From the NCBI RefSeq assembly GCF_963378105.1, contig NZ_OY726398.1:4459230-4491229 (forward strand): DNA of 32,000 nt, in the 5' to 3' direction. The notes under the pieces were generated by a model that was not told where the DNA came from, ran no database searches, and saw only the letters and a list, made by a program, of their open reading frames with translations. The position numbers and the translations under genes are program-made. Source of the stretch: [Mycobacterium] holstebronense (GTDB taxonomy: Bacteria; Actinomycetota; Actinomycetes; Mycobacteriales; Mycobacteriaceae). Below are positions 589-32,000 of this stretch, piece after piece; positions within the stretch are counted from its first letter, which is position 1; each line of letters opens with the position of its first letter.

Positions 589-675
589 TTGGGATGTCCT
601 ATCTGTGTGGCCCACAGTTGTGCTAGCTCTGTCTGTCATGAAGTTTGGATTTGGCGGCTTAGCTGCTCAGCAGGC

Positions 676-3081: not shown

Positions 3082-3130
3082 GACGCCCTCCCGGACGAAA
3101 GTTCCGAAGTTGCTTTGCCGTTCAGGTCGC

Positions 3131-14722: not shown

Positions 14723-15123
14723 CGACCTGGCTGATCGACAAGTCCGCCTACACGCGACTCGGGGAGTCTCCTGATGCACAGGAATGGGCGGATCGGATCG
14801 GACGCGGCGTGGTCCGCATCAGCACCGTGACGCGACTCGAGATCGGCTATTCCTTTCACAATGCGGAACAAGCACGCCACGAAACCCTCTCGCCCCCACT
14901 GTCTCTCATGCCGTTGGAGTATGTGACTCCGGCGGCCGAGAACCGCGCAATTGCGACTCAACTGCTGCTGGCCGATCGCGGCCAACATCGAGCACCGTCC
15001 GTTCCTGACCTTCTTGTGGCTGCTATAGCAGAAACCGCCGGCCTAACGGTCCTGGCGCTGGATAGGGGCTACGAGTTGATCGCCGACCTAACCGGACAAC
15101 CCATCGACCGGCTTCGGCTCTGA
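14719..15123 (+). CDS. vapC: PIN-domain toxin VapC
   Basis: GTG start within GTGA, 134 aa. Conserved acidic positions are in the usual PIN order: LIDKS, RLEIGYS, VPDLLVAA, LALDRGYE. Confidence 0.8.
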   Translation: MTTWLIDKSAYTRLGESPDAQEWADRIGRGVVRISTVTRLEIGYSFHNAEQARHETLSPPLSLMPLEYVTPAAENRAIATQLLLADRGQHRAPSVPDLLVAAIAETAGLTVLALDRGYELIADLTGQPIDRLRL

Positions 15124-15132
15124 CCGCGGGGT

Positions 15133-15496
15133 TCAGTCGCCGTCGCAGCGGTAGGCGCTGATCACGTCGGGATCGGGATCGGGATCGATGCCGAGGCCCG
15201 ATCCGTGCGGCACGGTGATCCGCCCGTCCGTCGTCGGCGTCGCGACCCAGACACAGCGGCGTGATGAGATCGACCAGCGCGTGGGCGGCCAGGCTGGCAC
15301 CGCGCCGGCCGAACGCCTCGGCCCAACCCACCATGCTGTCGTCGGTGGTCTCCTTGACCAGTAGTGAGTCCGCGCTCGACAGCTTTTCACTCCACAGCGT
15401 GGCGCCGGGCAGGCCCGGTTTGAGCGGAACCCGCAGCGGGACGACCTCGATTCCGGCAATGCTCCTGGCTATCCATGTATCCATGCATGTATACAC
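15133..15496 (-). pseudogene. Remnant of an enolase-superfamily (mandelate racemase / muconate lactonizing enzyme) gene with a large internal deletion and frame change
   Basis: One minus frame gives an MR/MLE-like N-terminus: IAGIEVVPLRVPLKPG...SLLVKETTDDSMVGWAEAFG...LVDLITPLCLGRDA. A different minus frame gives the typical C-terminus: GRITVPHGSGLGIDPDPDPDVISAYRCDGD*. The junction lies near 15225-15240, and about 250 residues of barrel domain are missing. Confidence 0.6.
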
Positions 15497-15506: not shown

Positions 15507-15748
15507 CCACCAAGACGATCTCGATCGACATCGAGGCATACGAGCGGCTCAGAGCAGCTCGCCGCTCACCGGACGAATCGTTCTCCCGTGTCATCAAGCG
15601 CGCGCACTGGCGCAACGAGGCTCGTACCGCGGGCGCACTGCTGGCAGCGTTGGCCGCGCTGCCGGTTGCCACCGAGGACGAACTCGAACGCCTCGACGAG
15701 GCGCAGCGGATGGACTTCCCCCCGGATGATCCGTGGCGCCCCGCGTAA
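15503..15748 (+). CDS. vapB: Antitoxin of the VapB/DUF217-like type (putative antitoxin family common in archaea)
   Basis: The 81-aa protein starts MATKTISIDIEAYERLRAARRSPDESFSRVIKRA, matching the M.KTI.I.d.vYe.L...k....SFSevI pattern of that family. It overlaps the downstream PIN gene by 16 nt. Confidence 0.7.
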   Translation: MATKTISIDIEAYERLRAARRSPDESFSRVIKRAHWRNEARTAGALLAALAALPVATEDELERLDEAQRMDFPPDDPWRPA

Positions 15749-16137
15749 GCGTCGACACGACGTTCCTTATCGACTTGCGGCGAGAACAGGCTGCCGGGAC
15801 TCCGGGTGGGCCGGCGCATCGGTTCTTAGGCGAGTCGCCCGATACCGAATTGTTCCTCTCGACCGTTGCACTCGGTGAATTTGCCGCGGGGTTCGAGCGC
15901 AGCGACGATCCGATCATCGTCGGCGTGCGCGAACGCCACGTCCTCGTTCCGGTCGACGATGCTGTCGCGCTCACCTATGCGGAAGTCTCCCAGGATCTGC
16001 GCCGCCGAGGGAACATGATCGGCAGCAATGACCTATGGATCGGCTGCACCAGCCTTCGTCTCGGAATCCCGGTTCTGACCCACAACGTCGCGGACTTCCG
16101 CCGGATCCAGGGACTCGGAGTCATCTCCTACCGCTAA
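15733..16137 (+). CDS. vapC: PIN-domain toxin VapC (second, unrelated module)
   Basis: GTG start, 134 aa. PIN acidic positions are VDTTFLID, ALGEFAAG, SNDLWIG and THNVADF. Confidence 0.8.
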   Translation: MAPRVSVDTTFLIDLRREQAAGTPGGPAHRFLGESPDTELFLSTVALGEFAAGFERSDDPIIVGVRERHVLVPVDDAVALTYAEVSQDLRRRGNMIGSNDLWIGCTSLRLGIPVLTHNVADFRRIQGLGVISYR

Positions 16138-16186: not shown

Positions 16187-16849
16187 TCAGGCGATCAGGT
16201 CGCCCAGGCCCAGATCGGGAAGCACGACGTCGAAACCGTCCGCGGGCAGCGCGGTGTCAAAACCGTCTGCAGGGAGCACGCCGTCAAGGCCAACCGGAGT
16301 GAATACGTCATCCCAACTGCCGGCGTGGAATATGTCGCCCAAGCCGGTCAGGCCGATGGCCTCACTGGAGCCGGGATCGAGCAATTCACCGGTGAACCAG
16401 TTGCGGGTTTCATACCAGTCCAAGAGGTTGCCGGCCAGATTCGATACGGCGTCGAAGGCCGTGCCCAACAAGGTGACGGTGTCCACGACACCCTGCCAGC
16501 CTTCGGTGATCAGCAGCAGTGGCGCGCCGAACACCAGCGTCAGTGGGATAACCACGAACAACTCGCCAAGCGCCTCGAGGCTGATGACGAATGGGAACAG
16601 CGGATTGCCCGGGTCGTCCAGGAACGGGATGATCCAGCTCAATCCGGTTAGCGCACCGACGATGTCCATCAAGCTGGAATCGGCGGACAGTGCGGTCAGT
16701 TCGACCGGGGTGAAGACCGCCGCTGACGGAAGAGTCACCGGGGACGCTGCGGCGGGAATAGGTGTGACGGCGCCGGCCGTCAACGCGACCACACCAGCGG
16801 TTGTAACGCTGGCGATGGCCCGAGAATATCCGTTCGACGCAGTCCACAT
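16187..16849 (-). CDS. Small acidic membrane protein; possible repeat-less relative of the GLG-repeat proteins
   Basis: The minus frame has C-rich third positions and hydrophobic segments (AIASVTTAGVVALTAGAVTPI; LGELFVVIPLTLVFGAPLLLI) and ends ...LPDLGLGDLIA*. The start is uncertain: ATG 16849 is preferred and ATG 16951 is possible; neither has a clear SD. The opposite-strand ORF 16035-16991 is S/P/R-rich junk. Confidence 0.6.
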   Translation of the reverse strand: MWTASNGYSRAIASVTTAGVVALTAGAVTPIPAAASPVTLPSAAVFTPVELTALSADSSLMDIVGALTGLSWIIPFLDDPGNPLFPFVISLEALGELFVVIPLTLVFGAPLLLITEGWQGVVDTVTLLGTAFDAVSNLAGNLLDWYETRNWFTGELLDPGSSEAIGLTGLGDIFHAGSWDDVFTPVGLDGVLPADGFDTALPADGFDVVLPDLGLGDLIA

Positions 16850-17046
16850 AGCCAGTGATTGTATTGCAGTGCAGCGAGATCTTCGAATTGAAAACCGAGT
16901 ACTGGGACAAATCGGATTGCGGCACCTGAGAAATACGTTGCTCTGCTGCATCCGACGCGTGCGCAGTCGTGCTTCTTGCTCCAGATCGTAAGCGCGGCTA
17001 TGTCTTTCGGAACACCCGCAGTCGGTCGGCTAGTTCCGATAGACGC

Positions 17047-17104: not shown

Positions 17105-19609
17105 CTACGGCTGGCCGACGGGCGGCTCCGGAGCGGTACCCGGGGTACCGGCCTGGCCGGGGGCACCGTCGCTCTCAGCATCCGGGCCCACGCCACCGGC
17201 GCCGCCGTCGCCACCGGCGCCTCCCACGCCGTCAGCACCCGGGGTGTCACCGGCGCCACCGTTGAGGCCATCATCACCCAGCGCCGGGGTGACGACATCG
17301 CCACCGTTACCGCCGTTGCCGGCATTGCCGCCCTGGACCTCACCCGCGCCACCAGCGCCGCCGTCGCCACCAGCGCCACCCTGGACGCCGTCGATCGGGC
17401 CAGAGGTGTTCGGGAGGTTAAGCACAGCGTTCGGGTCGCCCCAGCGGATGTCGCCGCCGGCGCCGCCGTTACCACCGACACCGCCGTTACCGCCGACGCC
17501 GCCGGTGCCGTCGGTGTTCGCCAAACCTGCGCCACCGGCACCACCGTCGCCGGCCTCGCCACCGTTGGAACCAACGGCATTGAGGTCGTTACCACCGTTG
17601 CCGCCGGCACCACCGTTACCACCGGTGGCACCGCTGCCGCCGGCCCCACCGGCGCCACCGGCACCGGTGACATTGCCTGGCGACCCCACCGGGTTCTCAA
17701 CGGCAACAGCGGAAGTGATGTCGGGTGTGTCGCCACCGTTACCGCCGGCACCACCGTTGCCGCCATCGCCGATCTGGCCATCGCTGCCGTTTGTCGCTCC
17801 GAGGCCAGCAGCGCCACCGTCGCCACCTGCACCACCGGCACCACCGTTGCCGGAGCCGCTGAAGCCATGGATGCCGCCGTTCTCGCCATGAATCCCGAAG
17901 CCGCTGACCCCGCCGTCACCGCCGACAGCACCGCTGCCGCCGAGACCACCGTTGCCGCCGTTGCCGGTCTGGCCACCGCCATTACCACCGGCTCCACCGG
18001 AACCACCGGCACCACCGTTCTCACCATTGCCGGCCGGACCGCCGTCACCGCCGGCATCGGGTTCCACCGTTCCATCGGCACCGTTGGCGCCGGCAGTGCC
18101 GTTACCGCCGTTACCGCCGTTGGCGCCGTCAGCGTCCACACCCGCGGCACCTGCGTTGGCGCCAGCACCACCGGCCGCACCACCGGCCGCGGCCGCACCG
18201 CCGTTACCGCCCGCGCCACCGTTACCGGCGTTACCGCCAGTCCCAACGCCGTCCGCGCCGACGCCGCCGACACCACCGAGCCCGCCGTTTCCGCCGACGC
18301 CACCGTCGCCGTTGGCACCAACCACACCATCGACCGAGCCCTTACCGGCCGCGCCACCGACACCACCGACACCACCGATCGCGCCGGCGCCACCATTACC
18401 ACCGGTACCGCCGTCGCCATCGCCATTATTGGCGAAGCTGCCCTCGGCGCCGGCGATACCGGCACCACCGTTGCCGCCGGCACCACCGACGCCGGCCGCG
18501 CCACCGTTACCTGCGACGCCCACGGTGTGAACACCGAAGAACCCACCGCGGCCACCGTTACCGCCGACACCACCGTTACCGCCGACACCACCGTTACCGG
18601 CGTTGCCGCCGTTGCCGTCCTGGGTGTCCGCGCCTGCAGCCCCGTTACCACCGATGCCACCGACGCCACCGACGCCACCGGTACCACCGGCACCGGAGTT
18701 GCCGAAGAGGCCGGCCACACCGCCGTTACCGCCCGCGCCACCGTTACCGGCCGTCCCGCCAGCCAGGCCGACGCCACCCGCGGCACCGGTACCGCCGGTA
18801 CCGCCGGTGCCACCCGCGCCACCGTTGCCGATCAGGAAGCCACCGTTACCACCGACACCACCGGCGAAACCAATCACTCCGATGTCGCCGATGCCGCCCT
18901 GGCCACCGGCGCCACCGTTGCCCATGAAGAAGCCGCCGGCGCCGCCGTCGCCACCGAGGCCGAAGAAGCTGCCGCCGTCGCCACCGTTGCCGATGAGGCC
19001 CGCGTTGCCACCGTCAAGGTTGAAGGTGGTCGAAGCGAACTCGTAGGTGCCGTTCTCGATGTCAGCCAGGGTGACCGCGTTACCACCGTCCATCAGGACC
19101 GCGCCGTTGGCGCCGATCACGTCACCCTCGGCGTTGACAAACGCGCCGCTACCGCCGTCGCCGAACAGGAAGCCACCACCGGATGCAGCGTGGTAGACCA
19201 GGTCGCCGTCACCGTTGATGCTGACGTAGGCACTGTCGCCGTTGTCGAAAATGCCGTCGAGTCGCAGACCACTGTCGATCAGGAACTGACCGATGCCGTA
19301 AATCGGCTGGTAGATGACCAGATTGAGGGTGTTCGCTACGAGCGCGTTGAGGTCGTCCAGCGGGGTGGTGGCCGCCGAGCCGGCCACGTCGCCATCGAAC
19401 GCGCCAAAGCCGGACCAGTCAAACCCCGACGTGTCGGCCGACGGCAGCTCGATCCAGCTGAACAGGTCACCAAAGTCGAAATCGGCGCTAGCCGGCGCCG
19501 CCATGATCGGCGTCATGCCAAAGGCCAGGAAGGCGCCCACGGCACTGGTAGCGCCCACGACGCGGCTCACTTTGCGTTTGCCGTTCTTGTCAGCGAAGCG
19601 GTAAGACAT
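17105..19609 (-). CDS. Signal-peptide PGRS-type glycine-rich protein (no PE domain)
   Basis: The 834-aa protein has GAGGGG (19615-19620) 5 nt upstream of ATG 19609. The N-terminus is [42 protein letters not shown]|DFDFG. A non-repeat region of about 190 aa is followed by GGAGG/GGNGG/GGTGG repeats, ending ...[12 protein letters not shown]. Confidence 0.85.
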
Positions 19610-19966
19610 GGATTCCCCTCAGATGGATTGACTGGTCACAGTTGACGACGACGTAAGTAACTTAGCCAGCGTTAAGCTAACAGAAGTGTGATGGGCCGGC
19701 AAACGTATGCACATAATTGCTGAGAAATTTTTTAGGCAAGTCACCTGACCAGCAATTGAGCTGCAGAACCCCGCCCCAGGTAGTGAGGCTCTCCCGGCCA
19801 TCAACCCGGAGCTGGCCGACCGGATCCGTTGCCCCGAGGCGCCGGCTGTGCTTTTTATCAGACTGACGGGAACAGCGCCTGCTCACTTCGTCACACAGCG
19901 CGCCGCGGCGCCGGTGGGCCTGAGACCGGCAGGATCCCGCTCCCGGGCCCTGATTAGGCTTCCCGG

Positions 19967-20377
19967 GTGGATGAGACGAGCAGCGGTCCTTTGCGCCTGT
20001 CGACACAGGTGTGGCGTTTCCTGCTGACCGGGGCACTGTCGGCGGTGGTGGACTTCGGCCTATACCTGGTGCTGTACCTGGGGGCAGGCGTGCCGGTCGA
20101 CATCGCCAAGGCAGGCAGCTTCATCGCCGGCACCACCACCGCGTACCTGATCAACCGGCGGTGGACGTTCCAGTCCACGGCGCACGCCGGGCGGTTCATC
20201 GCGGTGATGGCGCTGTATGCGCTGACGTTCGCGGCCCAGGTGGGGATCAACCACCTGGTGCTGGAGCTGCTGGATTACCAGCGGTGGGCGCTGCCGGTGG
20301 CGTTCGTGGCGGCGCAGGGCACCGCGACCGTGATCAACTTCGTGGTGCAGCGGACGCTGATCTTCCGGGCGGGCTGA
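19967..20377 (+). CDS. GtrA-family small membrane protein (Rv3789 orthologue)
   Basis: The sequence ...[56 protein letters not shown]...[15 protein letters not shown] matches the GtrA signature. The start is GTG 19967 or, by length comparison with the 121-aa Rv3789, GTG 20009. Confidence 0.85.
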
Positions 20378-20381
20378 CTAA

Positions 20382-20431
20382 AGAAGGGCCCCGGTTGGAG
20401 CGCCTTTCGGCGGCCCGACCGGGGCCCTTCT
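20382..20431. terminator. 14-bp perfect stem hairpin between the convergent gtrA-like gene and the giant glycine-rich gene
   Basis: AGAAGGGCCCCGGT (20382-20395) pairs with ACCGGGGCCCTTCT (20418-20431). The 22-nt loop contains an inner CGCC-TTTC-GGCG stem. There is no U-tract, which is common for mycobacterial terminators. Confidence 0.5.
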
Positions 20432-20446
20432 CACGTGATGCCGCGG

Positions 20447-23400
20447 CTATATCCCCGGCTGGTTCGCCCCGTTCACCCCGGGAGCGTCCACACCGGACAC
20501 CTGGTCACCGTATTGGATCACCAGGTTGGTGTCTTCGCCGTTCCCGCCGACGTAGCCACTTCCGGTTCCGCTACCGCCGTTGCCGCCGGTGGAGCTGGAA
20601 TCAGTGACCGTCGATGCGGTACCGGCTCCGTCGTTGCCGTAGGCACCCAGCCGGGCCTGGCCACCGTCGCCACCTTCGCCGCCGTCGATGCCATCGCCGC
20701 CACGACCACCCACAGACGTTCCGTCGGCGACGTTGCCGATGTCACCACCGGTGACGATGCTCGCCTTGCCGCCGTCGCCGCCCTGGCTGTTCGCACCCGT
20801 AGCGTCACCGCCGGCACCGCCGGTGGACGTGCCGCTGGACATGCCTCCCGGTCCACCGCCAAGCCCGCCGTTGGTCAGCTTGGAGCTCTGGATGACCGAA
20901 CTACCGCCGTCACCGCCCTGGCTGTTGGCGCCGGTCGCGTTTCCGCCGGCACCACCGGTGGAGTGGCCGTAGCTGATACCGCCGACAGCGCTGGTCGCCG
21001 AGGCGTCACCGGACTCCAACTCACCCCAGCTGCCCTTGCCACCGGTGCCACCGTCGGTGCCGTCGCCGCCGCGGCCGCCCTGGGCGATCGCGTCGTAGCC
21101 GCGGTAGCCGATCGATCCGCCCGGGTTGTCGACCACCAGGTAGCCCGCGCCACCGTCACCGCCGATGCCGTTGTCGCCGGTACCGCCTTCGCCGCCGAGG
21201 GCTTGTGCGGTGGTGATCATCGAGTCGGTGCCGGTAGCCGAAGCAACCGCTTCACCACCGGCGCCACCCTGGCCGCCGTTGGCTGCACTGCCACCGTCAC
21301 CGCCGACGACCTCGACATCGTGGATCTTGGCCCCATCGGTGGCGGCGATGGCGGCGTCGCCACCGTCCGCGGTAGCGCTGCCGCTGCCGCCGGTTACCGA
21401 ACTCTCGGTGATCCAACCGCCGCTGGACGCAGTGGCCGTGGCGTTTCCAGCGCCGCCATCGGCTCCCACCTCCCCCGCTTGGGCGGTCACACCAGCAATG
21501 GTGCTGTTCGCACCGTCAGCGGTGATAGCAGCACTGCCGCCGCTGACGCCTGCTCCAGCGTCGGTTCCAGTGGCGCGACTGCCGGAGATCAAGCCGCCAT
21601 AGGTGGCCTGCACCAGACCGCTGCCGCCTGCTGCGCCGGCCGCACCGTCGCCGCCGGTAGCACTGCTGTTGTAGATGTTGATGCCTGCATCCGCCGGGTC
21701 AGAGCCATTGCTGGTGTGGCCGATCCGGCCCTCACCACCGGCACCACCGTTGACGCCATTGGCACTGTCGCCGCCGTTACCACCGGTCGCCGACCCGTTG
21801 GTGATGCTGCCGCCGTAGCCACCGGAGCTGATCCGGCCGGTACCACCGGCACCACCGGTGTGGCCGACGCCGCTTTCGGTGGTACCCGTACCGCCGTTGC
21901 CACCGTGGGCCGTACCGGTGACGGTGCCACCGCCACCGCTTTGCATGTCAGCACGGATCTGAGCGTCACCGCCGATACCACCGGTGCTGCCGTAGCCAAC
22001 ACCGTCGCCACCGTTGCCGTTGGTGGCTTGACCGCCGGCGTGAGCATCTGCACCGAAGGCGCCCACCTGCGCGTAGAAGGTGTAACTACCGCCCTTGCCG
22101 CCATCGAGACCGTCACCACCGTTACCGCCGGTGACAACAGTGTCCGCGTCCACGGTGGCACCGTCACCGGCGGCGTAAATCCGTCCACCGGAAGCATTTC
22201 CACCGATCCCACCGTGACCCGAGTTGTCCGCGGTGGCGTTACCGCCCGTACCGCCGTAGATGGTGCCGGCAGCCGAACCACCGTCTTGGTAGTACGAGCC
22301 GGTAGCGATACGGGCCGAACCGCCCAGACCACCCACACTGCCGCCGCCGGTTCCGTCACCGCCAACACCGGCCAACGCCTTACCCGTCACATCCCCACCA
22401 AGGTGGGCAGTGTGGTCGTTGGTCTGGTAGATGGTCCACAGCTCCGAGTAACCGCCGGCGCCACCCTTGCCGCCGTCGAACCCGTCACCGCCGTTGCCAC
22501 CGATGGCCTGCGCGTCGTGGACGCTGCCATCCAATTGCGAGGCCACCGACGCATACCCGCCAGCGCCACCCGTACCACCGTTGCCGTCACCGACGCCGGC
22601 GTTACCACCGGTCACGGTCACATTGGTGACGTCGCCACCCAACCGATCCGCCGTCCCGTTATCCGCCGCCGACGGCAGTGTCCCGCCAGCCATGATGTTG
22701 GCCGCACCACCGGCAGCACTATCCGAACCATCACCACCAGTCACGTGGCTGTTGTCGACGTTGCTGGAGTCAGTGGCCACCAGTGATGCGTTGCCACCCA
22801 GCGCGCTTCCGCCGGCACCGCCGTCACCACCGGTGACAGAGCTGTTCGAAACGGAGCTGCCCGAGGAGACGGTCGCCGTGGCCGAACCACCAGCACCGTT
22901 CACACCACCGTTACCGCCATCAACATCAAGACCGTTGACGGTGCCGCCGGTGACCGTGACGGTGGCACCGCCACCGGCCCCGGTGCCCGTACCGGCGTTA
23001 CCACCGGTGAGGTGAGCGTCGGTGACATTTCCGCCGCCGGTCACAGTCAAGCCACCCGAACCACCCAGCGTGGTACCGGTGCTCTCCCCAGCGGTCACCG
23101 AACTGTCAGCGACATGACCACCATCCGTGGTGATCCGCGCCCCCGGACCCTGCTGAGTACCGGCGCTGTTACCACCGGTGACCTGGCTGTTGGTGATGGT
23201 GTCACCCTCACCCCGGGCGATGATCACCGTGTCAGAGGTCACCCGGCCAGCGGCCCCAGGAACCCCGGCACCACCGTCACCACCGGTAGCAGTCACGCCG
23301 GTAACCGATGAGTCCTTACCGAGGGCCTGAACATAGGTGTAACCACCCTGACCGCCCAGGGCCCCGGCACCGGTGCCATCACCACCATCACCAGCGGTCA

Positions 23401-26400
23401 CCGTGCCGTTAGCCGTGGCGCCCTCATTGAGCGCCCCGACCTGGCCGGTAAAGCCCCGACCGCCGGTGCCGCCATCAATACCGTCACCACCGTTACCGCC
23501 GTGGGCAGTACCACTGGCCTGCGCACCAGCGCCACCAGCGACGACGCTGCCGGTATTGCCGACACCACCCGTGCTGCCAGCCCCGACCGCGTTACCACCG
23601 GCACCACCGGTCGCCACACCCTGCGCGGTACCACCATTGCCACCCAGGCCGCCACTGGCGAAAGCCCCTTGGATGTTGGCGCTGCCACCGTTACCACCCG
23701 TGCTGCCCACACCGGTTCCCGTACCACCGTTACCGGCAGTGGCCGAGCCGTAGGCAGTTCCGTCCTGGCCCGCGGTGACCTGCGCGTAGCTGCCGTTACC
23801 ACCGGTACCGCCATCGAAACCAGCACCACCGGCACCACCCTGGACCACCGTGTCCACATTCGCGTCACCGACCGTGCCGCCGTTGCCGACGAAGGCGTAT
23901 GCATTGTTGCCATTACCGCCATGGCCACCGTTCTCGCCTGCACCACCGGCACCGCCGATGGCGTGCACCTGGTCCGGGTCACCGGCAATACCCACCGTGC
24001 CATCCGGGGCCCGGACGATAGCGACACCACCCGTGCCGCCGGTGCTGCCAGTGCCATCCGCGGCACCACCGACACCACCGGTGGCATTACCCGAGGCGTG
24101 GTCATCGTTGCCGACGATCACACCCGCATCGGTGATCCCGGCGTCAACAAAGGCATTACCACCGGCACCCGCCTTGCCACCGGCCGTACCAGCACCGCCA
24201 TCACCGCCGCGGGCAGTGCCCTCCGCCGTGGTCTGAGCACCGCCAGCCATCACCCGCGCCGCACCACCAGCACCACCGATACCGCCATTGGCATCGCCGG
24301 AGCCACCATCACCACCAATCGCGTGGCCGTTGGTAACCGCACCACCCTGCTGAGCGGTCACAGTGGCGTTACCACCGGTGGAGCCGATACCGCCGCTGCC
24401 CGCAATGCCGCCAACCGCGGAACTGCCCGCCACGGTGGACCCCAAGCCATCAGCGGTGACGTCAGCTGCCCCGCCGGCCACACCGTTGACACTGTCACCA
24501 GCAGTGGCGATGCCATTGCTGATCACGCCACCATCGGTGGCGCTGATCGTGCCGGTGCTGCCGGCCGCGCCCGCCGCACCATTCGCGGCAGCAGTGGCGT
24601 TAGAGCCGTTACCGCCGTCACCACCGGTGGCCGCGCCACCGGCTGTGCCGCCGTCGGCGACCACCGTCGCGGCACCACCGACTCCGCCGGCACCACCGAT
24701 CCTGTTGGTGCTGAAGCCGTCACCGCCGTTACCACCCGTGCCGCCGGTAGCCGAAGTGGTGTCATCACCATTGACGTCGACGGTGTTGGTCACGGTGCCA
24801 CCGTTGTGCGCCTCGATCGAGGCGGCACCACCGTTTCCTCCGATACCACCGTTAGCGGTGGCGCCGATATTGCCGACGACGCCGCCAGCACCACCGGTCG
24901 CGGTCCCGCCCGCCACAGTGCTCGCACCATCAGCCGAGACCGTCGCCGCACCACCATTTCCAGCGGCGGCGGTAGCCAAACCACCCGTCGCCCCGGCGCC
25001 ACCGATGGCCGTACCCGACGCTGAGCTGGTGTCCGAAGCCGTCACCGTCGCGGCGCCGCCCTTGCCACCGACCCCGCCGGCCTTAACCAACGACGCCTCA
25101 CCGCCATCGCCACCGCGACCACCAGTAGCCGCACCACCGGCGGTCCCACCGTTAGCCGTGATCCGGCCATCTGCCCCAGCACCACCGGCGCCACCGTTGA
25201 AAGCCGTGGTGGCGTCGCCGCCGTCACCACCAGCACCACCGGTAGCCGCACCACTGGCCGTACCACCGTCAGCAATCACAGAGGCGTTACCGGCCAGACC
25301 ACCGGCACCACCGGCCTTGCCACCGATGGCCTCGCCGCCGCTACCACCATTACCGCCGGTAGCCGTGGTGGCGCTGGTTACGGTGCCACCGTTGTGCGCC
25401 TCAATGAACGCAGCACCACCGTTTTGGCCCTTGACACCATTGCCACCGGTACCGCCGTCGCCGCCGGTCGCGGTACCACCCAGCACGGTGCTATTGCCGT
25501 CTGCAGAGATGGCGGCCGCACCACCAGCACCGACAGAGCTGCCAGTCAGGCCGCCCATAGCACCCGCACCACCGATCGCCGTACCGGTAGCGGTGCTGGT
25601 GTCCGCTGACGTGACAGTCGCAGCTGCGCCCGCACCACCGGTACTGCCAGCCTTGTCGACACTGGCGTCACCACCGGTACCACCGGCACCACCGGACGCC
25701 GAGCCACCGGCCGTCCCACCCGTGGCCGTGATGCTGCCAGCACCGCCGACACCACCGTTACCACCGACACCGCCGGTGTTGGCATTGCCACCGCCACCCC
25801 CGACACCACCGGAAGCCGCACCGCTGGCCGTGCCACCGTCAGCAGTAATAGTGGCCTTGCCGCCGGCCGCGCCGTTACCGCCGGCAAAGCCAGCAGCCCC
25901 TTGCCCGCTACTGCCGCCGGCACCACCGACAGCCGTGGTGCCGTCCGTGTTGGTGACAGTGCCACCGTTACGCGCCTCAATGGTCGCCGCACCACCGGCC
26001 GCGCCCCGGCCATCACCGCCATTGCCACCGGCACCGCCGATGGCCGTACCACCCTGCACCGAGCTGGCCGCACCGTCAGCAGAGATCGTCGCCGCACCAC
26101 CGCTACCGGCAGTGTTGCCCGTCACGCCGGCCGTACCACCAGCACCACCGATCGCCGTACCGCTGGCACTACCGCCCGCTGACGCCTTGACCTCCCCGAC
26201 ACCCCCGGCAACACCGTTAGCGCCGGCCTTGTCGACACTGGCATCACCGCCGTCACCGCCAGCACCACCGGTGGCCGTGCCGTGGACCGTGCCACCATCG
26301 GCCGTGAGCCTGCCAATGGCGCCGGTAGCGCCGTTGCCGCCCGCGCCGCCGGCGTCGCCCGCGCCACCGTCGCCGCCGACGCCGCCGGTGGCCACACCGG

Positions 26401-29400
26401 TAGCGCTGCCACCGTTAGAGGCAGTGACGGTACCGGCACCGCCCGTCCCGCCAGTGCCACCCGCGCCGCCGTTGAGGGTGTCGCCGCCGCTACCGCCCAC
26501 GCCACCGGTGACGTCAGCGTCGGACACCGTGCCGCCCGTGTTCGCCGTGATGGTGGCAGCACCACCCCTGCCGCCGGCGCCGCCTCCGGCACTTCCGGCA
26601 CCGCCCGCGCCGCCGGCCAGCGTGCTGTTCTCAACTTGACCACCGTCGGCCGTGACCGTCGCCGCACCACCCGCGCCATAACCCGTCTGGCCATCGGCAC
26701 CGACAAGCACGGTATCGGTCACCGTGCCGCCGTTTCTGGTAGTGATCCCGGCCGTTCCGCCAGCACTGCCGGCAGCACCGGCGCCGCCAGTGACGTGACT
26801 ATCCGTGACGTGGTCACTACCAGTGCCCGGGTTGCCGCCGTCACCTCCGACGAAGTTCGTCGCGCGCCCGCCATTGCCGCCATTGACGCCATCAGCACTG
26901 TCGCCGCCACGTCCACCGGTCGCCGAACTGTCGGTGCTGGTGCTGTTAGCCGAATTGGCCTGCACATAGGCCTGGCCGCCATTACCGCCGGTCAGCCCAT
27001 CGCTACCCGTACCGCCATCGCCACCGTTTGATTGACCATCAGTGATTGTGGAGTTCTCGCCCAGTGCCCGGACCCAACCCAACCCACCGTCGCCGCCCTT
27101 GCCGCCCGCACCGACGCCGTCGCCGCCGCTGCCACCGTAGGCTTCGCCGTCAGCCTTGGCACCGTCAGCCAGCGCCGACACCTGACCACCGATGCCGTTG
27201 CCACCGGTGCCACCGGCGAGGCCATCCCCACCCGAGCCACCGACCGCGATACCGGAGGCTTCTGCGCCGGCACCGCCCGCGATGACGGAACCGTTGCGGG
27301 CAATGCCACCGGTACCGCCACCAGTCGCATTACCACCGGCACCGCCAGTCGCAGTGCCAGACGCGGTACCACCATTGCCGCCCAAACCACCGGGCTGCCC
27401 ATCACTCCAAGCCGCCTGAATACCGCCCGTGCCACCGGCACCACCGACACTGCCCGCACCCTCGGCACTGCCACCGACCCCGCCGATCGCCGTGCCGGAG
27501 GCATCGCCGCCGGTCCCGTAGCCCTCCAGACCGGCATACACGGCGCCGCCGCCACCGACACCGCCTACGCCGCCATCGCTACCGGTGCCGCCACTAGCCC
27601 CGGTGGCCGTCGCGTCATGAACGAAGCCGCCCTGCTCAGCGCTCGCATACCCGACACCGCCGGCACCACCCGTGCCGCCGGTCTCGCCAGCACCACCGGT
27701 ACCACCGGCGACAGTGACCTTGTCAACCATGCCACCCGAGTTGGCCTCGACCGTCGCGCTACCACCGACACCACCGGTACCGCCGTTGGCGTCACCGATC
27801 CCGGCATTGCCGCCGGTGGCCGAGCTGTCCGTGACGCTGCTACCGGTCCCGTCAGCGGTGATGACCGCTGCACCACCGGCCGCACTGTCGCTGGCGTTGC
27901 CGCCGGTCGCCAAGACCGTGTCGATCACGGCGCCGTCCGTCGCAGTCACGTTGGCGCTGCCGCCGGCACCGCCCGAACCACCGTTACCACCAGTGACCGT
28001 GGCGTTGATGACCGCGCTGTCCGCGCCGTCAACAGCAATGGCCGCCGCGCCGCCGTCGAAGCCGTCACCGGCGTTGCCACCGGTCACCGTGCTGCCAGCG
28101 ACACTGCCACCGTTGGTGACCAGCAGCGAGGCGCCGCCGCCAAGGGCGTTGTCGCTGTCTTGTCCGCTGGCCACCGTGGTGTTTTCGATGGAGCCGCCGT
28201 CGGTAGCGATCAGCGAGTTGCTGGCGCCGTCGCCGCCGACCACACCGTTGAGACCACCATTGCCGCCGTCGCCGCCGGTGACAGTGCCGTCGGTGATGTC
28301 GCTGCCCAGGCCGTCGGCGTGGATGGTCGCGCCGCCACCAGTACCGCCGTGGCCGCCGGCCGCGGTGGTGCTACCGGCGCCACCGTCGCCGCCCTTACCG
28401 CCGGTCGCAGTACCGGTAGCGGTGCCGCCGTTGGTGCCGCCCACATAGGCACCACCGCCACCACCACCGCCGGCACCGCCGAAGCCGGCATCCGTGCCGG
28501 CGCTCAGGGCGCCGCTGCCGCCGAGGCCACCGGACCCGCCGACCGCGCCGGCGCCGATGCCGGCACCGGTACCGCCGGCACCGCCGTCGCCGCCCTTACC
28601 GGCCGCGCCGCCATTTACAGCCGCACCACCGATGCCACCGGTACCGCCGATACCACCGGCTTGGCCGAGCAGCCCGTCGCTGCCGACACCATCGCCGTCG
28701 CCACCCTTGCCGCCGTTGCCGCCGTCGCTGGTCGCGCCCGACGTGCCAGCCGCACCGCCGGTACCGGCCGTTCCCGCACCCGTACCGGCCGCACCGCCAG
28801 CACCGGCCGCACCACCAGCGGCGCCGTTACCACCGCTACCGCCGGCACCCGCGGTGTCACCGCCACCGCCGCCGGCGCCGTCACCGCCCGCGCCGGCCGT
28901 TCCTGCGTTGCCGCCGCTACCACCGGTACCACCATTGCCGTTGACGACACCACCGCTACCACCGGCACCACCGGCCCCGCCCTGACCACCGGCTCCGGCA
29001 TTGCCACCGTTACCACCGGAGTTGTCGCCGCCGGTGGCGCTGAAGCCTTCGCCGCCGTTACCGCCAGAACCACCGGCACCGCCTTGACCTCCGGTGCCAC
29101 CGACGTTGCCGGTTCCGCCCGCGCCGCCGGTTCCACCGGCGCCACCCGCGCCACCGTGGTCGCCGTTGGGATCCCCGTCGACTCCTGCCAGGCCGTTGAA
29201 GCCCTGACCGCCGATGCCACCGGCACCACCATTGCCGCCGTCACCCTCCGCGGCCCGGGTGAGGCCATCGGTTTGTAGTCCGCCCTGGCCGCCGTTACCG
29301 CCGGCACCACCAGCACCGCCGGCGCCACCGTCGATGTCGAGCGCATCACCGGCAGTGCCAGCGGCACCGTCCTTGCCGTGGCCACCATTGCCACCGACAC

Positions 29401-32000
29401 CGGCGGTGCCATCGGCTGCGTTACCGCCGCCGACCTCTAGGCCACCCTTGCCGGCGTTACCGCCGGTACCACCATCGCCACCGGCCGTACCTGCGGCCGC
29501 ACCGCCATCGCTGGCGGCGTCATACCCGGCGCCGCCGGCACCACCGCTGCCGCCCTTACCGGCCGAGCCATTGCCGCCGCCGGCCGACTGAGCACCGTTA
29601 CCACCAGCCGCGAAACCACCCGCGCCACCGGCACCGGCGTTACCACCGTCGCCACCGTTGCCACCGATACCGCCCGTGGTGTTGACGGCGTCGCCGGCCA
29701 TGCCGACCGCCCCGTTAGCGCCGTCGGTGCCACTACCGCCCTGGCCACCGACACCACCGACGCCGTCGGCGCCGGCGACCGAACCGGTACCGCCGACGCC
29801 GCCGTTACCGCCGACGCCGCCATTGCCACCGGAAGTACCGGCCGCGGCACCCGCTCCGAGCGCGTCATAGCCGGCGCCACCGGCGCCACCCTTGCCGCCG
29901 TCACCGCCAGTGCCCGACGTCGCCCGCGTGGCTCCATCGGCCTGCAGACCACCTAGGCCGCCGTTGCCGCCGTTACCACCCGCGGTGCCAGCGGTGCCGT
30001 TGACGTTGAGGGCGTCGCCGGCAGTGCCCGCGACCCCGTCCTTGCCGTCGCCACCGTTGCCGCCGACGCCGGCCGCGCCGTCCGCGGCCCGGCCGCCACC
30101 GACCTGCAGGCCACCCAGACCGGCGTTACCACCGACACCGCCCTTGCCACCGGCGGTCCCAGCTGCGGCGGCACCATCAGAGGCCGCGTCATACCCGGCA
30201 CCGCCGGCACCGCCGCTGCCGCCCTTACCGGCCACACCGTTGCCGCCCGACGCGGCCTGAACCCCGCCACCGGAGAAACCACCGGCGCCACCAGCACCTG
30301 CGTTACCACCATTGCCACCATTGCCGCCGGCACCACCGTCGGGGTTCAGCGCGCTACCAGCCGTACCGACCGCGCCGTTGGCGCCATCGGTGCCCGAGCC
30401 GCCCTTGCCACCGACACCACCAGCGCCCTGGGTGCCGGCCGTCGAACCCGTACCGGCCACACCACCGTTACCACCGGCGCCGCCGTTGCCACCGGACGTG
30501 CCCGCCGCCGCACCAGCGGCCACCGCGTCATAACCGGCACCACCTACGCCACCGGCACCACCGTTGCCGCCCTTGCCCGCCGCCGCATGGGTGGTCCCAT
30601 CGGCCTGCAGACCACCCTGGCCACCGTTACCACCGTTACCACCGGAGGTGCCGGCCGTGCCGTTGATGCTGCCCGCGGTGCCCGCCGTACCGGCAGCGCC
30701 CGCCTTACCCGAGCCACCATTACCGCCGACACCGGCGGTACCGTCCGCGGCACGACCGCCGCCGACCTGCAGACCACCCTGGCCGGCGTTACCACCGATA
30801 CCGCCGTTGCCACCGGAGGTACCGGCCGCCGCCGCACCATCGGAGGCGGCGTCGTACCCGGCGCCACCGACACCGCCGCTGCCGCCCTTACCGGCCACAC
30901 CGTTCGCGCCACCGGCAGCCTGCGTGCCACCACCGGAGAAGCCACCAGTACCACCGGCACCGGCGTTACCGCCATTGCCACCATTGCCGCCGGCACCACC
31001 GTCGGGGTTCAGCGCGCTACCAGCCGTACCGACCGCGCCGTTGGCGCCATCGGTGCCCGAGCCGCCCTTGCCACCGACACCACCAGCGCCCTGGGTGCCG
31101 GCCGTCGAACCGGTACCGGCCACACCACCATTGCCACCGGCGCCGCCGTTGCCACCGGACGTGCCCGCCGCCGCACCAGCCGTCACCGCGTCATAACCGG
31201 CACCACCTACGCCACCGGCACCGCCATTGCCGCCCTTGCCCGCCGCCGCATGGGTGATGCCATCGGCCTGCAGACCACCCTGGCCGCCATTGCCACCATT
31301 ACCACCGGACGTCCCGGCGGTTCCATTGACGTTGACCGCATCCCCGGCCGTGCCCGCCGTGCCGTTCTTGCCGTGCCCGCCATTGCCACCGAGACCGGCC
31401 GTGCCATTCGCAGCGTTGCCGCCACCGACCTGAGCACCGCCCAGGCCGGCGTTACCACCGACACCACCGTTGCCGCCGGACGTCCCGGCCGCCGCCGCAC
31501 CATCGGCGGCAGCGTCATAGCCGGCACCACCGGCACCACCGCTGCCGCCCTTACCGGCCACACCGTTGCTGCCCGACGCGGCGAAGTTGCCGCCACCGGA
31601 GGCGCCACCGGCACCACCCGCGCCGGCATTGCCACCATTGCCACCGTGCCCACCGGCACCACCATCGGGGCTACCGGCAGTTCCCGCTGTACCGACCGCA
31701 CCAGTGGCGCCATCGGTACCCGAGCCACCATTGCCACCGACACCGCCGACACCGTGCAGACCGGCGACCAGGCCGGTACCGCCGACGCCACCGCTACCGC
31801 CAGCGCCACCGGCGCCGCCATCGGTACCCGGAGCCGCACCGGCGCCGACTGCGTCATAGCCGGCACCGCCCTTGCCGCCCGCGCCGCCGTCGCCGCCGAG
31901 TCCGGTCGCAGCACGCGTGGTGCCATCGGCCTGCAAGCCGCCCAGCCCGCCGTTACCGCCGCGGCCACCCGCCTGACCGGCGGTGCCGTCGACGTCGCTG
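20447..32000 (-). CDS. Giant glycine-rich PGRS-like repeat protein, more than 3,850 aa; 5' end lies outside the window
   Basis: The track ORF 20447-31936 starts at a TTG that is simply an internal Leu of the recurring GGLQADG motif. I translated 31937-31999 in the same frame ([21 protein letters not shown]) and found no stop, so the gene continues upstream. It ends ...GVDAPGVNGANQPGI* at TAG 20447-20449. It is a single uninterrupted frame over 11.55 kb. Confidence 0.85.
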   Translation of the reverse strand, partial: SDVDGTAGQAGGRGGNGGLGGLQADGTTRAATGLGGDGGAGGKGGAGYDAVGAGAAPGTDGGAGGAGGSGGVGGTGLVAGLHGVGGVGGNGGSGTDGATGAVGTAGTAGSPDGGAGGHGGNGGNAGAGGAGGASGGGNFAASGSNGVAGKGGSGGAGGAGYDAAADGAAAAGTSGGNGGVGGNAGLGGAQVGGGNAANGTAGLGGNGGHGKNGTAGTAGDAVNVNGTAGTSGGNGGNGGQGGLQADGITHAAAGKGGNGGAGGVGGAGYDAVTAGAAAGTSGGNGGAGGNGGVAGTGSTAGTQGAGGVGGKGGSGTDGANGAVGTAGSALNPDGGAGGNGGNGGNAGAGGTGGFSGGGTQAAGGANGVAGKGGSGGVGGAGYDAASDGAAAAGTSGGNGGIGGNAGQGGLQVGGGRAADGTAGVGGNGGSGKAGAAGTAGTAGSINGTAGTSGGNGGNGGQGGLQADGTTHAAAGKGGNGGAGGVGGAGYDAVAAGAAAGTSGGNGGAGGNGGVAGTGSTAGTQGAGGVGGKGGSGTDGANGAVGTAGSALNPDGGAGGNGGNGGNAGAGGAGGFSGGGVQAASGGNGVAGKGGSGGAGGAGYDAASDGAAAAGTAGGKGGVGGNAGLGGLQVGGGRAADGAAGVGGNGGDGKDGVAGTAGDALNVNGTAGTAGGNGGNGGLGGLQADGATRATSGTGGDGGKGGAGGAGYDALGAGAAAGTSGGNGGVGGNGGVGGTGSVAGADGVGGVGGQGGSGTDGANGAVGMAGDAVNTTGGIGGNGGDGGNAGAGGAGGFAAGGNGAQSAGGGNGSAGKGGSGGAGGAGYDAASDGGAAAGTAGGDGGTGGNAGKGGLEVGGGNAADGTAGVGGNGGHGKDGAAGTAGDALDIDGGAGGAGGAGGNGGQGGLQTDGLTRAAEGDGGNGGAGGIGGQGFNGLAGVDGDPNGDHGGAGGAGGTGGAGGTGNVGGTGGQGGAGGSGGNGGEGFSATGGDNSGGNGGNAGAGGQGGAGGAGGSGGVVNGNGGTGGSGGNAGTAGAGGDGAGGGGGDTAGAGGSGGNGAAGGAAGAGGAAGTGAGTAGTGGAAGTSGATSDGGNGGKGGDGDGVGSDGLLGQAGGIGGTGGIGGAAVNGGAAGKGGDGGAGGTGAGIGAGAVGGSGGLGGSGALSAGTDAGFGGAGGGGGGGAYVGGTNGGTATGTATGGKGGDGGAGSTTAAGGHGGTGGGATIHADGLGSDITDGTVTGGDGGNGGLNGVVGGDGASNSLIATDGGSIENTTVASGQDSDNALGGGASLLVTNGGSVAGSTVTGGNAGDGFDGGAAAIAVDGADSAVINATVTGGNGGSGGAGGSANVTATDGAVIDTVLATGGNASDSAAGGAAVITADGTGSSVTDSSATGGNAGIGDANGGTGGVGGSATVEANSGGMVDKVTVAGGTGGAGETGGTGGAGGVGYASAEQGGFVHDATATGASGGTGSDGGVGGVGGGGAVYAGLEGYGTGGDASGTAIGGVGGSAEGAGSVGGAGGTGGIQAAWSDGQPGGLGGNGGTASGTATGGAGGNATGGGTGGIARNGSVIAGGAGAEASGIAVGGSGGDGLAGGTGGNGIGGQVSALADGAKADGEAYGGSGGDGVGAGGKGGDGGLGWVRALGENSTITDGQSNGGDGGTGSDGLTGGNGGQAYVQANSANSTSTDSSATGGRGGDSADGVNGGNGGRATNFVGGDGGNPGTGSDHVTDSHVTGGAGAAGSAGGTAGITTRNGGTVTDTVLVGADGQTGYGAGGAATVTADGGQVENSTLAGGAGGAGSAGGGAGGRGGAATITANTGGTVSDADVTGGVGGSGGDTLNGGAGGTGGTGGAGTVTASNGGSATGVATGGVGGDGGAGDAGGAGGNGATGAIGRLTADGGTVHGTATGGAGGDGGDASVDKAGANGVAGGVGEVKASAGGSASGTAIGGAGGTAGVTGNTAGSGGAATISADGAASSVQGGTAIGGAGGNGGDGRGAAGGAATIEARNGGTVTNTDGTTAVGGAGGSSGQGAAGFAGGNGAAGGKATITADGGTASGAASGGVGGGGGNANTGGVGGNGGVGGAGSITATGGTAGGSASGGAGGTGGDASVDKAGSTGGAGAAATVTSADTSTATGTAIGGAGAMGGLTGSSVGAGGAAAISADGNSTVLGGTATGGDGGTGGNGVKGQNGGAAFIEAHNGGTVTSATTATGGNGGSGGEAIGGKAGGAGGLAGNASVIADGGTASGAATGGAGGDGGDATTAFNGGAGGAGADGRITANGGTAGGAATGGRGGDGGEASLVKAGGVGGKGGAATVTASDTSSASGTAIGGAGATGGLATAAAGNGGAATVSADGASTVAGGTATGGAGGVVGNIGATANGGIGGNGGAASIEAHNGGTVTNTVDVNGDDTTSATGGTGGNGGDGFSTNRIGGAGGVGGAATVVADGGTAGGAATGGDGGNGSNATAAANGAAGAAGSTGTISATDGGVISNGIATAGDSVNGVAGGAADVTADGLGSTVAGSSAVGGIAGSGGIGSTGGNATVTAQQGGAVTNGHAIGGDGGSGDANGGIGGAGGAARVMAGGAQTTAEGTARGGDGGAGTAGGKAGAGGNAFVDAGITDAGVIVGNDDHASGNATGGVGGAADGTGSTGGTGGVAIVRAPDGTVGIAGDPDQVHAIGGAGGAGENGGHGGNGNNAYAFVGNGGTVGDANVDTVVQGGAGGAGFDGGTGGNGSYAQVTAGQDGTAYGSATAGNGGTGTGVGSTGGNGGSANIQGAFASGGLGGNGGTAQGVATGGAGGNAVGAGSTGGVGNTGSVVAGGAGAQASGTAHGGNGGDGIDGGTGGRGFTGQVGALNEGATANGTVTAGDGGDGTGAGALGGQGGYTYVQALGKDSSVTGVTATGGDGGAGVPGAAGRVTSDTVIIARGEGDTITNSQVTGGNSAGTQQGPGARITTDGGHVADSSVTAGESTGTTLGGSGGLTVTGGGNVTDAHLTGGNAGTGTGAGGGATVTVTGGTVNGLDVDGGNGGVNGAGGSATATVSSGSSVSNSSVTGGDGGAGGSALGGNASLVATDSSNVDNSHVTGGDGSDSAAGGAANIMAGGTLPSAADNGTADRLGGDVTNVTVTGGNAGVGDGNGGTGGAGGYASVASQLDGSVHDAQAIGGNGGDGFDGGKGGAGGYSELWTIYQTNDHTAHLGGDVTGKALAGVGGDGTGGGSVGGLGGSARIATGSYYQDGGSAAGTIYGGTGGNATADNSGHGGIGGNASGGRIYAAGDGATVDADTVVTGGNGGDGLDGGKGGSYTFYAQVGAFGADAHAGGQATNGNGGDGVGYGSTGGIGGDAQIRADMQSGGGGTVTGTAHGGNGGTGTTESGVGHTGGAGGTGRISSGGYGGSITNGSATGGNGGDSANGVNGGAGGEGRIGHTSNGSDPADAGINIYNSSATGGDGAAGAAGGSGLVQATYGGLISGSRATGTDAGAGVSGGSAAITADGANSTIAGVTAQAGEVGADGGAGNATATASSGGWITESSVTGGSGSATADGGDAAIAATDGAKIHDVEVVGGDGGSAANGGQGGAGGEAVASATGTDSMITTAQALGGEGGTGDNGIGGDGGAGYLVVDNPGGSIGYRGYDAIAQGGRGGDGTDGGTGGKGSWGELESGDASATSAVGGISYGHSTGGAGGNATGANSQGGDGGSSVIQSSKLTNGGLGGGPGGMSSGTSTGGAGGDATGANSQGGDGGKASIVTGGDIGNVADGTSVGGRGGDGIDGGEGGDGGQARLGAYGNDGAGTASTVTDSSSTGGNGGSGTGSGYVGGNGEDTNLVIQYGDQVSGVDAPGVNGANQPGI
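24600..26370 (-). repeat. Three tandem 576-588-bp (about 192-196-codon) coding repeats in the middle of the giant gene
   Basis: CCGTT(G/A)(T/C)GCGCCTC, encoding IEA(H/R)NGG, occurs at 24801, 25389 and 25965. A second marker encoding S(V/L)(D/V)KAG recurs about 575 nt apart near 25080, 25655 and 26230. The outer boundaries are approximate. Confidence 0.8.
29266..32000 (-). repeat. Tandem 663-bp (221-codon) coding repeats at the 5' side of the giant gene
   Basis: The marker CATCGG(C/T)(C/T)TG recurs at 29266, 29935, 30598, 31261 and 31924, giving spacings of 669, 663, 663 and 663 nt. About 180 nt starting at 30341 and at 31004 are nearly identical. The array continues past the window end. Confidence 0.9.

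Follow-up and report, generated by a model that had tools for sequence, protein, structure and literature searches.

Glycine-rich PGRS proteins are usually regarded as characteristic of pathogenic mycobacteria that grow slowly and as PE/ESX-5 cargo, PE_PGRS proteins being substrates of ESX-5. The largest PE_PGRS of Mycobacterium tuberculosis has about 1,900 amino acids (aa), and PPE56 and PPE8 of the same species reach about 3,300-3,700 aa. A stretch of 32,000 nucleotides from [Mycobacterium] holstebronense (referred to as the window) carries on its minus strand, at 20447-32000, an open frame for the C-terminal part of a glycine-rich protein two to three times larger than the largest of these PE_PGRS proteins. 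We analyzed this protein (hereafter the giant) together with its relatives in the M. terrae complex. On balance we favour the explanation that it is an exported, acidic fibre of the envelope or surface, from an M. terrae-complex family with a signal peptide and predicted solenoid modules. It is probably not a PE_PGRS.

The PE_PGRS proteins of M. tuberculosis and M. marinum are like the family in their high Gly content, GGxGG enrichment, acidity, absence of Cys and a length that varies between species, and the complete relatives of the giant carry a short GG-aromatic-x-G-x-GG stretch after their N-terminal domain (N-domain), which is also a PGRS feature (PMC9436101). PGRS "sails" are described as strongly acidic, and their GG-Phi-Phi-x-G-x-GG edge was proposed to embed the sail in the mycomembrane (Berisio and Delogu, PMC9436101). 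However, PE_PGRS proteins have a PE domain and a GRPLI linker where the family has a signal peptide and an unrelated N-domain, and they have a sail in the form of a polyglycine-II (PGII) sandwich where the C-terminal ~2,650 aa of the giant consist of strand-containing modules, one of which was modelled as solenoid-like.

The non-PE "PGRS repeat-containing proteins" of non-pathogenic mycobacteria likewise bear PGRS-type repeats outside a PE/ESX-5 context. Those with a PGRS domain in M. smegmatis are small and their N-termini were called "questionable" (PMC11939664). The P0005 protein of M. sinensis has the same leader type as the family together with a clear Pfam PGRS match (51 bits). In the literature retrieved, no super-repeats, solenoid modules, conserved tail, multi-thousand-residue size or placement between gtrA and dprE1 are described for this group. 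The PPE_MPTR giants of M. tuberculosis also extend over several thousand residues of short Gly/Asn-rich repeats, but the MPTR motif does not occur in the visible part of the giant and no PPE domain was found in the family members tested. Finally, the beta-helical adhesins of Gram-negative bacteria (Ag43, TibA, pertactin and TpsA/FHA) are long, repetitive, acidic, Cys-poor beta-solenoid rods, as the giant is predicted to be, and they are exported unfolded and fold outside the cytoplasm, as the giant may be. They differ from it in having no sequence similarity or significant structural match to it, in their envelope and export route, and in the anchoring element, which is C-terminal in the adhesins and would be N-proximal in the giant. 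No published description of the family itself was found in the literature; the nearest is a review (PMC11939664).

The open frame and its maintenance

Translation of the minus strand gave 3,850 sense codons at 20447-31999, closed by a single stop at 20447-20449 and without another up to the window edge. This number is a lower bound, as the 5' end of the gene and the N-terminus lie beyond base 32000. The first start-like codon in frame is a TTG at 31936 (3829 aa), downstream of base 31999, where the frame is open already. Over this 11.55 kb, 9, 45, 55, 112 and 181 stops interrupt the other five frames, whose longest open runs are 101-779 codons. When the region was simulated with Markov models (200 simulations of order 2 and 200 of order 5), the longest open run was about 300 codons on average and never exceeded 530 in the 400 simulations.

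The visible fragment consists of Gly (38 %), Ala (17 %), Thr (9 %), Ser (6 %), Val (6 %), Asp (6 %) and Asn (5 %) as its main residues, contains no Cys and has a net charge of -182. No hydrophobic segment was observed (maximum KD19, Kyte-Doolittle hydropathy, 1.13). A lipoprotein or a transmembrane protein was rejected on account of the zero Cys and the lack of a hydrophobic segment in this visible part. Gly is encoded by GGT in 47 % and by GGG or GGA in only 8 % of cases, compared with 5-18 % and 24-45 %, respectively, in the neighbouring genes. Both Gly-rich genes on the minus strand of the window (17105-19609 and 20447-31999) show this pattern, with 45-47 % GGT and 5-8 % GGG+GGA; it could reflect avoidance of G-runs and slippage or the usage of tRNA-Gly(GCC).

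Open reading frames (ORFs) also occur in antisense over the giant gene, at 20435-22786, 24363-26639 and 27032-29278 of the window (+), and in relatives (contig L006, 17955-20411, +; contig L013, 14218-17829, +). Such shadow ORFs, 750-1,200 codons long, arise as a by-product of codon repeats of the GGY/GCC type. The public annotations of M. minnesotensis and M. engbaekii include frames of this kind as proteins of 1,164 and 1,203 aa.

The sequenced strain, Mu0102, is a member of the M. terrae clade, and its 4.79 Mb genome was closed using Oxford Nanopore Technologies (ONT) and Illumina reads, each of which also served to check it (PMC11706282). In the Logan short-read data for run ERR11843496, one contig matches window positions 18718-27075 with zero mismatches over 8,358 bp. 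Two short-read contigs that encode the exact GtrA both break inside the giant gene. Mis-assembly of the gene is unlikely because the genome was closed and verified with ONT and Illumina reads and the short-read contig is identical over 8.4 kb.

All locus comparisons were anchored on gtrA. Convergent-strand Gly-rich genes were found beside it in every M. terrae-complex genome examined (eight with M. holstebronense). Their products have 2,447 and 3,428 aa in M. kokjensenii, 1,829 and 1,803 aa in CSUR Q5927, 872 and 5,766 aa in M. algericus, 950 and 5,737 aa in AP022562, and 1,220 and 4,362 aa in M. engbaekii. M. minnesotensis has a gene for 4,333 aa in addition to an 849-aa orthologue of the smaller Gly-rich gene of the window (834 aa), and M. 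kumamotonensis has one for 2,163 aa in addition to a 1,569-aa member across gtrA. The giant shares with this family the conserved tail, the 221-aa super-repeat and A-type modules described below, and the position beside gtrA. In the visible stretches of the relatives (417-3,298 codons, seven genomes), zero internal stops were observed.

The super-repeats are 81-86 % identical to those of M. minnesotensis, with a ratio of non-synonymous to synonymous substitution rates (dN/dS) of 0.14-0.15 and a synonymous divergence (dS) of 0.8-1.0, and 62-72 % identical to those of M. kokjensenii. Between internal copies dN/dS was 0.17-0.45, and dS ranged from 0.36 to 1.3 overall. For the super-repeats, alignments for dN/dS were made using MAFFT with --amino; default MAFFT, which probably takes a protein rich in G, A, T and N for nucleotide sequence, gave none. 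Because the frames are open in the relatives, dN/dS is low and the choice of Gly codons is distinctive, the giant is a genuine translated gene under purifying selection.

When a collection of 1.84 billion representatives was searched with phmmer, only three short fragments were returned (E 3e-5 to 5e-4). The collection did not contain any of six family proteins that were looked up exactly, annotated NCBI products included. The poor yield is consistent with a composition filter acting on a query of 38 % Gly and with the absence of the family from the collection, and is not taken to mean an absence of homologues. A protein-pattern scan of genome contigs yielded 600 pattern matches, none of which tblastn confirmed, and an exact 42-mer from the window edge matched none of them. 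In the draft genome of M. engbaekii (L013, 10502-17829), the first Gly-rich gene after gtrA starts inside the super-repeats (1,220 aa) and is followed by a shadow ORF, which suggests that a frameshift or assembly error has split a larger gene.

A first-pass annotation, made from the letters of the window, had reported an uninterrupted Gly-rich frame of more than 3,850 codons, still open at the edge, and had attributed its lack of stops to selection. Both points were confirmed: the first by the translation and by simulated runs of no more than 530 codons, the second by dN/dS of 0.14-0.46 and by open homologous frames in seven other genomes. Its concern that repeats might be mis-assembled was met by the closed ONT and Illumina genome and the identical 8.4-kb short-read contig, on which the frame held up. 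Its claim of exceptional size is right in so far as no PE or PPE protein of M. tuberculosis is known to reach the length of the giant, but homologues of 4,333-5,766 aa are annotated within the clade. The source is not an M. tuberculosis-like species and belongs to the M. terrae complex (Mycolicibacter).

Modules, predicted fold and leaders of the family

At the window edge the fragment begins with 221-aa Gly-rich super-repeats (29282-31999, -). Four units occupy fragment aa 21-241, 242-462, 463-683 and 684-906, and a partial unit lies at the edge itself; therefore the array may continue upstream beyond the window. Each super-repeat comprises two half-repeats of ~110 aa marked by AGYDA and has no hydrophobic "keel" motif. 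In a self-comparison the four units were 75-96 % identical in amino acid sequence. Their nucleotide identity is only 75-88 %, with dS of 0.36-0.88 and dN/dS of 0.17-0.24 between copies, which does not agree with the description of the frame as recombination-prone in the first-pass annotation. Tandem Repeats Finder detected only short 9-30-bp arrays because the super-repeats are old at the DNA level.

The repeats pass into a degenerate continuation at 28400-29281 (-; fragment aa ~907-1200), which is the most Gly-rich stretch (51 % Gly). Fragment aa 1201-3850 are spanned by four paralogous supermodules of ~450-540 aa, which share 42-46 % identity with one another when aligned. The first, A1 (26780-28399, -; aa 1201-1740), is separated from A2 by three copies of a ~190-aa repeat (24800-26599, -; aa 1801-2400). 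These copies consist of short units of the type ATITADGGT.SG.ATGG.GG.GG and are 57-66 % identical (dN/dS 0.45). Supermodule A2 (23150-24742, -; aa 2420-2950) is collinear with part of the 5,766-aa M. algericus homologue, to which it shows ~75 % identity as a mean over the aligned span (59-82 % over 200-aa tiles; dS 0.60; dN/dS 0.30-0.32). Outside A2 the modules are shuffled between species and not collinear. A3 (21650-23152, -; aa 2950-3450) is the segment that was modelled, and A4 (20450-21712, -; aa 3430-3850) includes a conserved, Gly-rich C-terminal tail of ~95 aa (20450-20734) ending in GVNGANQPGI. Nine family members from five species have C-termini that align with this tail, as does the metagenomic fragment P0006.

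Structure prediction by segments, which the first-pass annotation had proposed, was informative for one of two regions. AlphaFold2 (AF2), given a 4-row alignment of internal paralogues, produced a confident model of A3, with a mean predicted local distance difference test score (pLDDT) of 79.5 and a predicted template modelling score (pTM) of 0.82. The model is repetitive, all-beta and solenoid-like, and its strands recur every ~29 aa and then every ~40 aa. The Foldseek comparison of this model with the PDB listed mostly beta-helix proteins, headed by the autotransporter adhesins Ag43, TibA and pertactin; the best E-value was 4e-3, template modelling (TM) scores were at most 0.25 and none of the matches was significant. 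In the case of the super-repeat region, the single-sequence AF2 model was uninformative (pLDDT 30.7). Sequence searches of the PDB with a module profile and with the N-domain gave no match. By this model a beta-solenoid fold is tentatively predicted for A3 and its paralogous modules.

Seven complete family members were examined for their N-termini (hol_834, which is the smaller protein of the window, and min_849, eng_790, alg_872, Q5927_1829, kok_2447 and kum_2163). All seven leaders have 5-7 basic residues (K/R), a hydrophobic core (Kyte-Doolittle 1.6-1.85) of a common 13-residue type and an AxA|D site at residues 37-46, and are followed by one of two small N-domains. Tat is a possible export route because an RR pair is present in four of the seven leaders. 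No PE domain was observed in any of the seven, and Pfam found none in the six that were scanned (all except eng_790). Two members (Q5927_1829 and kum_1569) join an N-domain of the 834-aa type to the C-terminal tail of the giant, and kum_2163, the positional counterpart near dprE1, combines a signal peptide with that tail.

The family was seen mainly in the M. terrae complex, and its complete members have a common architecture. A long cleavable signal peptide (basic n-region, core of the 13-residue type, AxA|D site) and a small globular N-domain are followed by ~100-150 aa of classical PGRS with aromatic motifs, then by a long acidic GGxGG-rich region without aromatic motifs (in the giant, the 221-aa super-repeats), and finally by several modules of ~190-540 aa with the predicted beta-solenoid fold and the conserved ~95-aa tail. 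The giant would be exported unfolded across the plasma membrane, most likely by Sec and possibly by Tat, and would then fold, once outside the cytoplasm, to form a long fibre of strongly acidic character. At 30-40 aa per coil, ~2,650 solenoid residues would form a rod of roughly 30-45 nm by our estimate. The N-proximal aromatic PGRS segment may anchor the protein in the envelope, with the remainder projecting as a surface, capsule or adhesion structure.

Several points weigh against this explanation. The N-terminus of the giant lies outside the window, and the leader assigned to it comes from paralogues and one positional counterpart. Its export, localisation and function were likewise inferred from sequence and model, and the mycomembrane poses a difficulty for a signal-peptide substrate, which would have to pass through it or become attached to it. 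The fold assignment derives from one AF2 model built on a 4-row internal alignment, with no significant PDB match, and the super-repeat third of the protein could be disordered instead of polyglycine-II-like. In addition, dprE1 was seen on the far side of a family gene in one genome only (M. kumamotonensis).

More tentatively, the family may represent giant envelope fibres, up to ~5,800 aa long and dependent on a signal peptide, of a class that has not been described before, which would unite a short classical PGRS anchor, keel-less super-repeats and solenoid modules that have no Pfam model or close PDB analogue. If so, PGRS-type Gly architecture exists and diversifies independently of PE/ESX-5, and the gtrA-dprE1 junction is the site where it expanded in this clade. 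The family would show the Gly-rich principle at a far larger size in relatives that are mostly saprophytic, here with an ordinary signal peptide in front and with another repeat fold, which bears on the origin of PGRS domains and on their route to the cell surface. It would also be a major ignored component of the envelope or capsule in the M. terrae complex, where a genome has several such genes, each 12-17 kb long. Short-read assemblies break at these genes, searches by HMMER and Pfam or with a SEG filter miss them, default MAFFT does not align them, and they give rise to antisense shadow ORFs that become annotated; the family is already present, unnamed, in public genomes, and within its own clade the giant is not exceptional in size.

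The gtrA-dprE1 junction and alternative explanations

The giant gene converges, across a 69-bp spacer, on a GtrA-family gene (Rv3789-like; 19967-20377, +) that matches Pfam PF04138 (E 3e-19) and whose product shows 100 % identity to the GtrA protein that NCBI lists for [Mycobacterium] holstebronense. The convergence on a gtrA-like gene stated in the first-pass annotation was therefore correct. No convincing terminator was found in the spacer (one weak match vs 0.8 expected). That annotation had also suggested that the giant sits inside the dprE1/arabinan neighbourhood. In M. kumamotonensis the junction is indeed occupied, in the order gtrA (+), 2,163-aa homologue (-), 186-aa gene (-) and a 463-aa protein with FAD_binding_4 and ALO domains that is plainly DprE1 by sequence, but this order was observed in a relative.

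The wider comparison covered 63 environmental mycobacterial contigs with 600 bp or more ahead of dprE1. In 55 of them gtrA is on the same strand and less than 200 bp upstream, and none of the 63 contains a Gly-rich ORF between the two genes. The giant genes thus represent a clade-specific insertion at the gtrA-dprE1 junction, a reading carried over to M. holstebronense from its relative. The contents of the junction vary by species and include one or two giants (1,220-5,766 aa), interspersed toxin-antitoxin pairs and a desaturase or racemase-like gene. Because the number and size of the giants and the interspersed genes vary so widely, the comparison suggests an insertion hot-spot of the clade and no functional operon.

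This variability is also a difficulty for the best of the alternatives, an improbable one, in which a functional tie to arabinogalactan/arabinan assembly (for example as a periplasmic scaffold or ruler) explains the position of the giant. Such a tie would agree with the presence of the family beside gtrA in eight M. terrae-complex genomes, with an environmental contig that encodes a PGRS protein with a signal peptide upstream of gtrA, with the predicted export and with a length sufficient to span the envelope. However, the content of the junction is highly variable and its modules are shuffled between species, most mycobacteria (M. tuberculosis included) make arabinan with gtrA directly abutting dprE1, and the giant gene is on the opposite strand to both neighbours. 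A role in arabinan synthesis cannot be read from the location of the gene between gtrA and dprE1.

Slightly less probable still is a bona fide PE_PGRS or PPE_MPTR protein, with a PE or PPE domain just beyond the window and secretion by ESX-5 (type VII). The giant contains 253 GGxGG motifs against 80.5 ± 9 in shuffled sequences, a roughly three-fold enrichment that is densest in fragment aa 1-1200; it is strongly acidic, as PGRS sails are (PMC9436101), and its N-terminus is beyond the window. One relative, kok_2447, is a marginal match to Pfam PGRS at aa 112-181 (27.7 bits vs a cut-off of 27). On the other hand, apart from the kok_2447 match, Pfam PE, PPE and PGRS were absent from the members tested, and all seven complete members, the one next to dprE1 among them, have a signal peptide at their start and then a non-PE N-domain. 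In the giant itself, Pfam PGRS (PF21526) was not matched by the whole fragment or by ten sub-segments even at E ≤ 10, although the composition filter of HMMER may have suppressed matches, and at this threshold Pfam and NCBIfam found no domain at all in the fragment or the sub-segments.

Motif counts gave the same picture. In the 3,850 visible aa of the giant the GRPLI motif is absent and the hydrophobic motif GG-Phi-Phi-x-G-x-GG, the keel motif, does not occur, while complete relatives have 2-4 copies of the latter, all within aa 120-300 just after the N-domain. The MPTR motif (N.G.GN.G) was found zero times, with a shuffle mean of 0.6, and no PPE Pfam match was obtained; a PPE_MPTR protein was rejected on the absence of this motif. 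The C-terminal two-thirds of the fragment consist of beta-strand-containing modules in place of GGA/GGN triplets. The PE_PGRS/PPE_MPTR frame of reference that the first-pass annotation had adopted was therefore abandoned, since the relatives carry a signal peptide and a non-PE N-domain and the visible part of the giant has no Pfam PGRS match and no MPTR or keel motif.

An RTX-like Ca-binding exoprotein, or a polymorphic toxin or adhesin with a dedicated secretion system and its activity in the C-terminal tail, is about as improbable as the PE_PGRS assignment. RTX-like nonapeptides (GGxGxD/NxUx) occur 20 times where 3 were expected, the protein is very acidic and Asp-rich, its C-terminal module is conserved, and the Foldseek list includes Ag43, TibA and pertactin. 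There is no RTX array, because the nonapeptides are scattered and form one tandem pair in 3,850 aa, and no HemolysinCabind Pfam match was found in the giant fragment. Toxin, immunity and type I secretion system (T1SS) domains were not found by Pfam or NCBIfam, and neither was a beta-barrel translocator or two-partner secretion (TPS) domain, the latter being tested on the complete relatives. The tail is Gly-rich and conserved among paralogues, thus not polymorphic, and none of the Foldseek matches is significant. The RTX array was rejected as its nonapeptides are not in tandem, and the polymorphic toxin as the C-terminus is conserved and Gly-rich without a toxin domain.

The least probable explanation is that the frame results from a mis-assembled repeat, is the remnant of a pseudogene or is an untranslated compositional frame in GC-rich DNA, and would thus be an artefact. 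In its favour, GC-rich GGY/GCC repeats yield long spurious frames (antisense shadow ORFs of 750-780 codons here), short-read assemblies break inside the gene and HMMER-based searches gave no homologues. Against it, no simulation gave an open run of even a seventh of this length, the closed hybrid genome was checked with both read types and agrees with the short-read contig over 8.4 kb, the same frame is open in seven other genomes with dN/dS well below 1 at synonymous divergence near saturation, and the codon choice is distinctive.

Neighbouring genes

The 834-aa paralogue (17105-19609, -) consists of a signal peptide, a type 1 N-domain of ~180 aa and a PGRS-like Gly-rich region that contains GG-FF/FL-x-G-x-GG motifs. 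Orthologues of 849 aa in M. minnesotensis and 790 aa in M. engbaekii occupy the corresponding position. Homologues of its N-domain were found in M. arupensis and M. sinensis, in two unassigned Mycobacterium or metagenomic fragments and in one Logan fragment; one of the homologues bears the name "PGRS repeat-containing protein". The 834-aa gene is followed immediately on its downstream side by a small ORF with a hydrophobic N-terminal region (16187-16951, -), which has counterparts of 220 aa in M. minnesotensis and 201 aa in M. engbaekii. Its product may be a partner of the 834-aa protein.

The genes of the window ahead of the giant encode a FadD-like ligase, a class-V aminotransferase, a DUF6541 membrane protein, an ABC ATPase, GlfT1 and an ABC-2 permease, followed by two PIN/VapC-like ORFs, the 834-aa protein and GtrA. 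We take the ABC ATPase/GlfT1/ABC-2 permease neighbourhood to be the Rv3778c-Rv3783 region of M. tuberculosis. The PIN/VapC-like toxin ORFs are located between the genes for the ABC-2 permease and the 834-aa protein, in a region with ORFs at 14719-15123 (+), 15733-16137 (+) and 15023-15496 (-). A short ORF beside them resembles the N-terminal remnant of an MR_MLE (racemase-like) gene, which is intact at the same spot in CSUR Q5927, M. algericus and M. kumamotonensis; judging from this resemblance, the gene is probably disrupted in M. holstebronense. Two tandem paralogous ORFs of ~829 and ~771 codons (676-3162 and 3131-5443, both -) belong to no Pfam or NCBIfam family, and show an N-terminal hydrophobic segment followed by long degenerate repeats rich in Asp, Leu, Gly and Thr (..GLG..T..ELL..).

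In the environmental contig L069, a protein with a signal peptide, an N-domain and PGRS (GGLFFGNGG motifs) is encoded at 3-1058 (-), upstream of gtrA and on the opposite strand. In this contig gtrA abuts dprE1, and the DprE1 shares ~86 % identity with its counterpart in M. kumamotonensis. The occurrence of PGRS proteins with a signal peptide next to gtrA may thus extend beyond the named species of the M. terrae complex.

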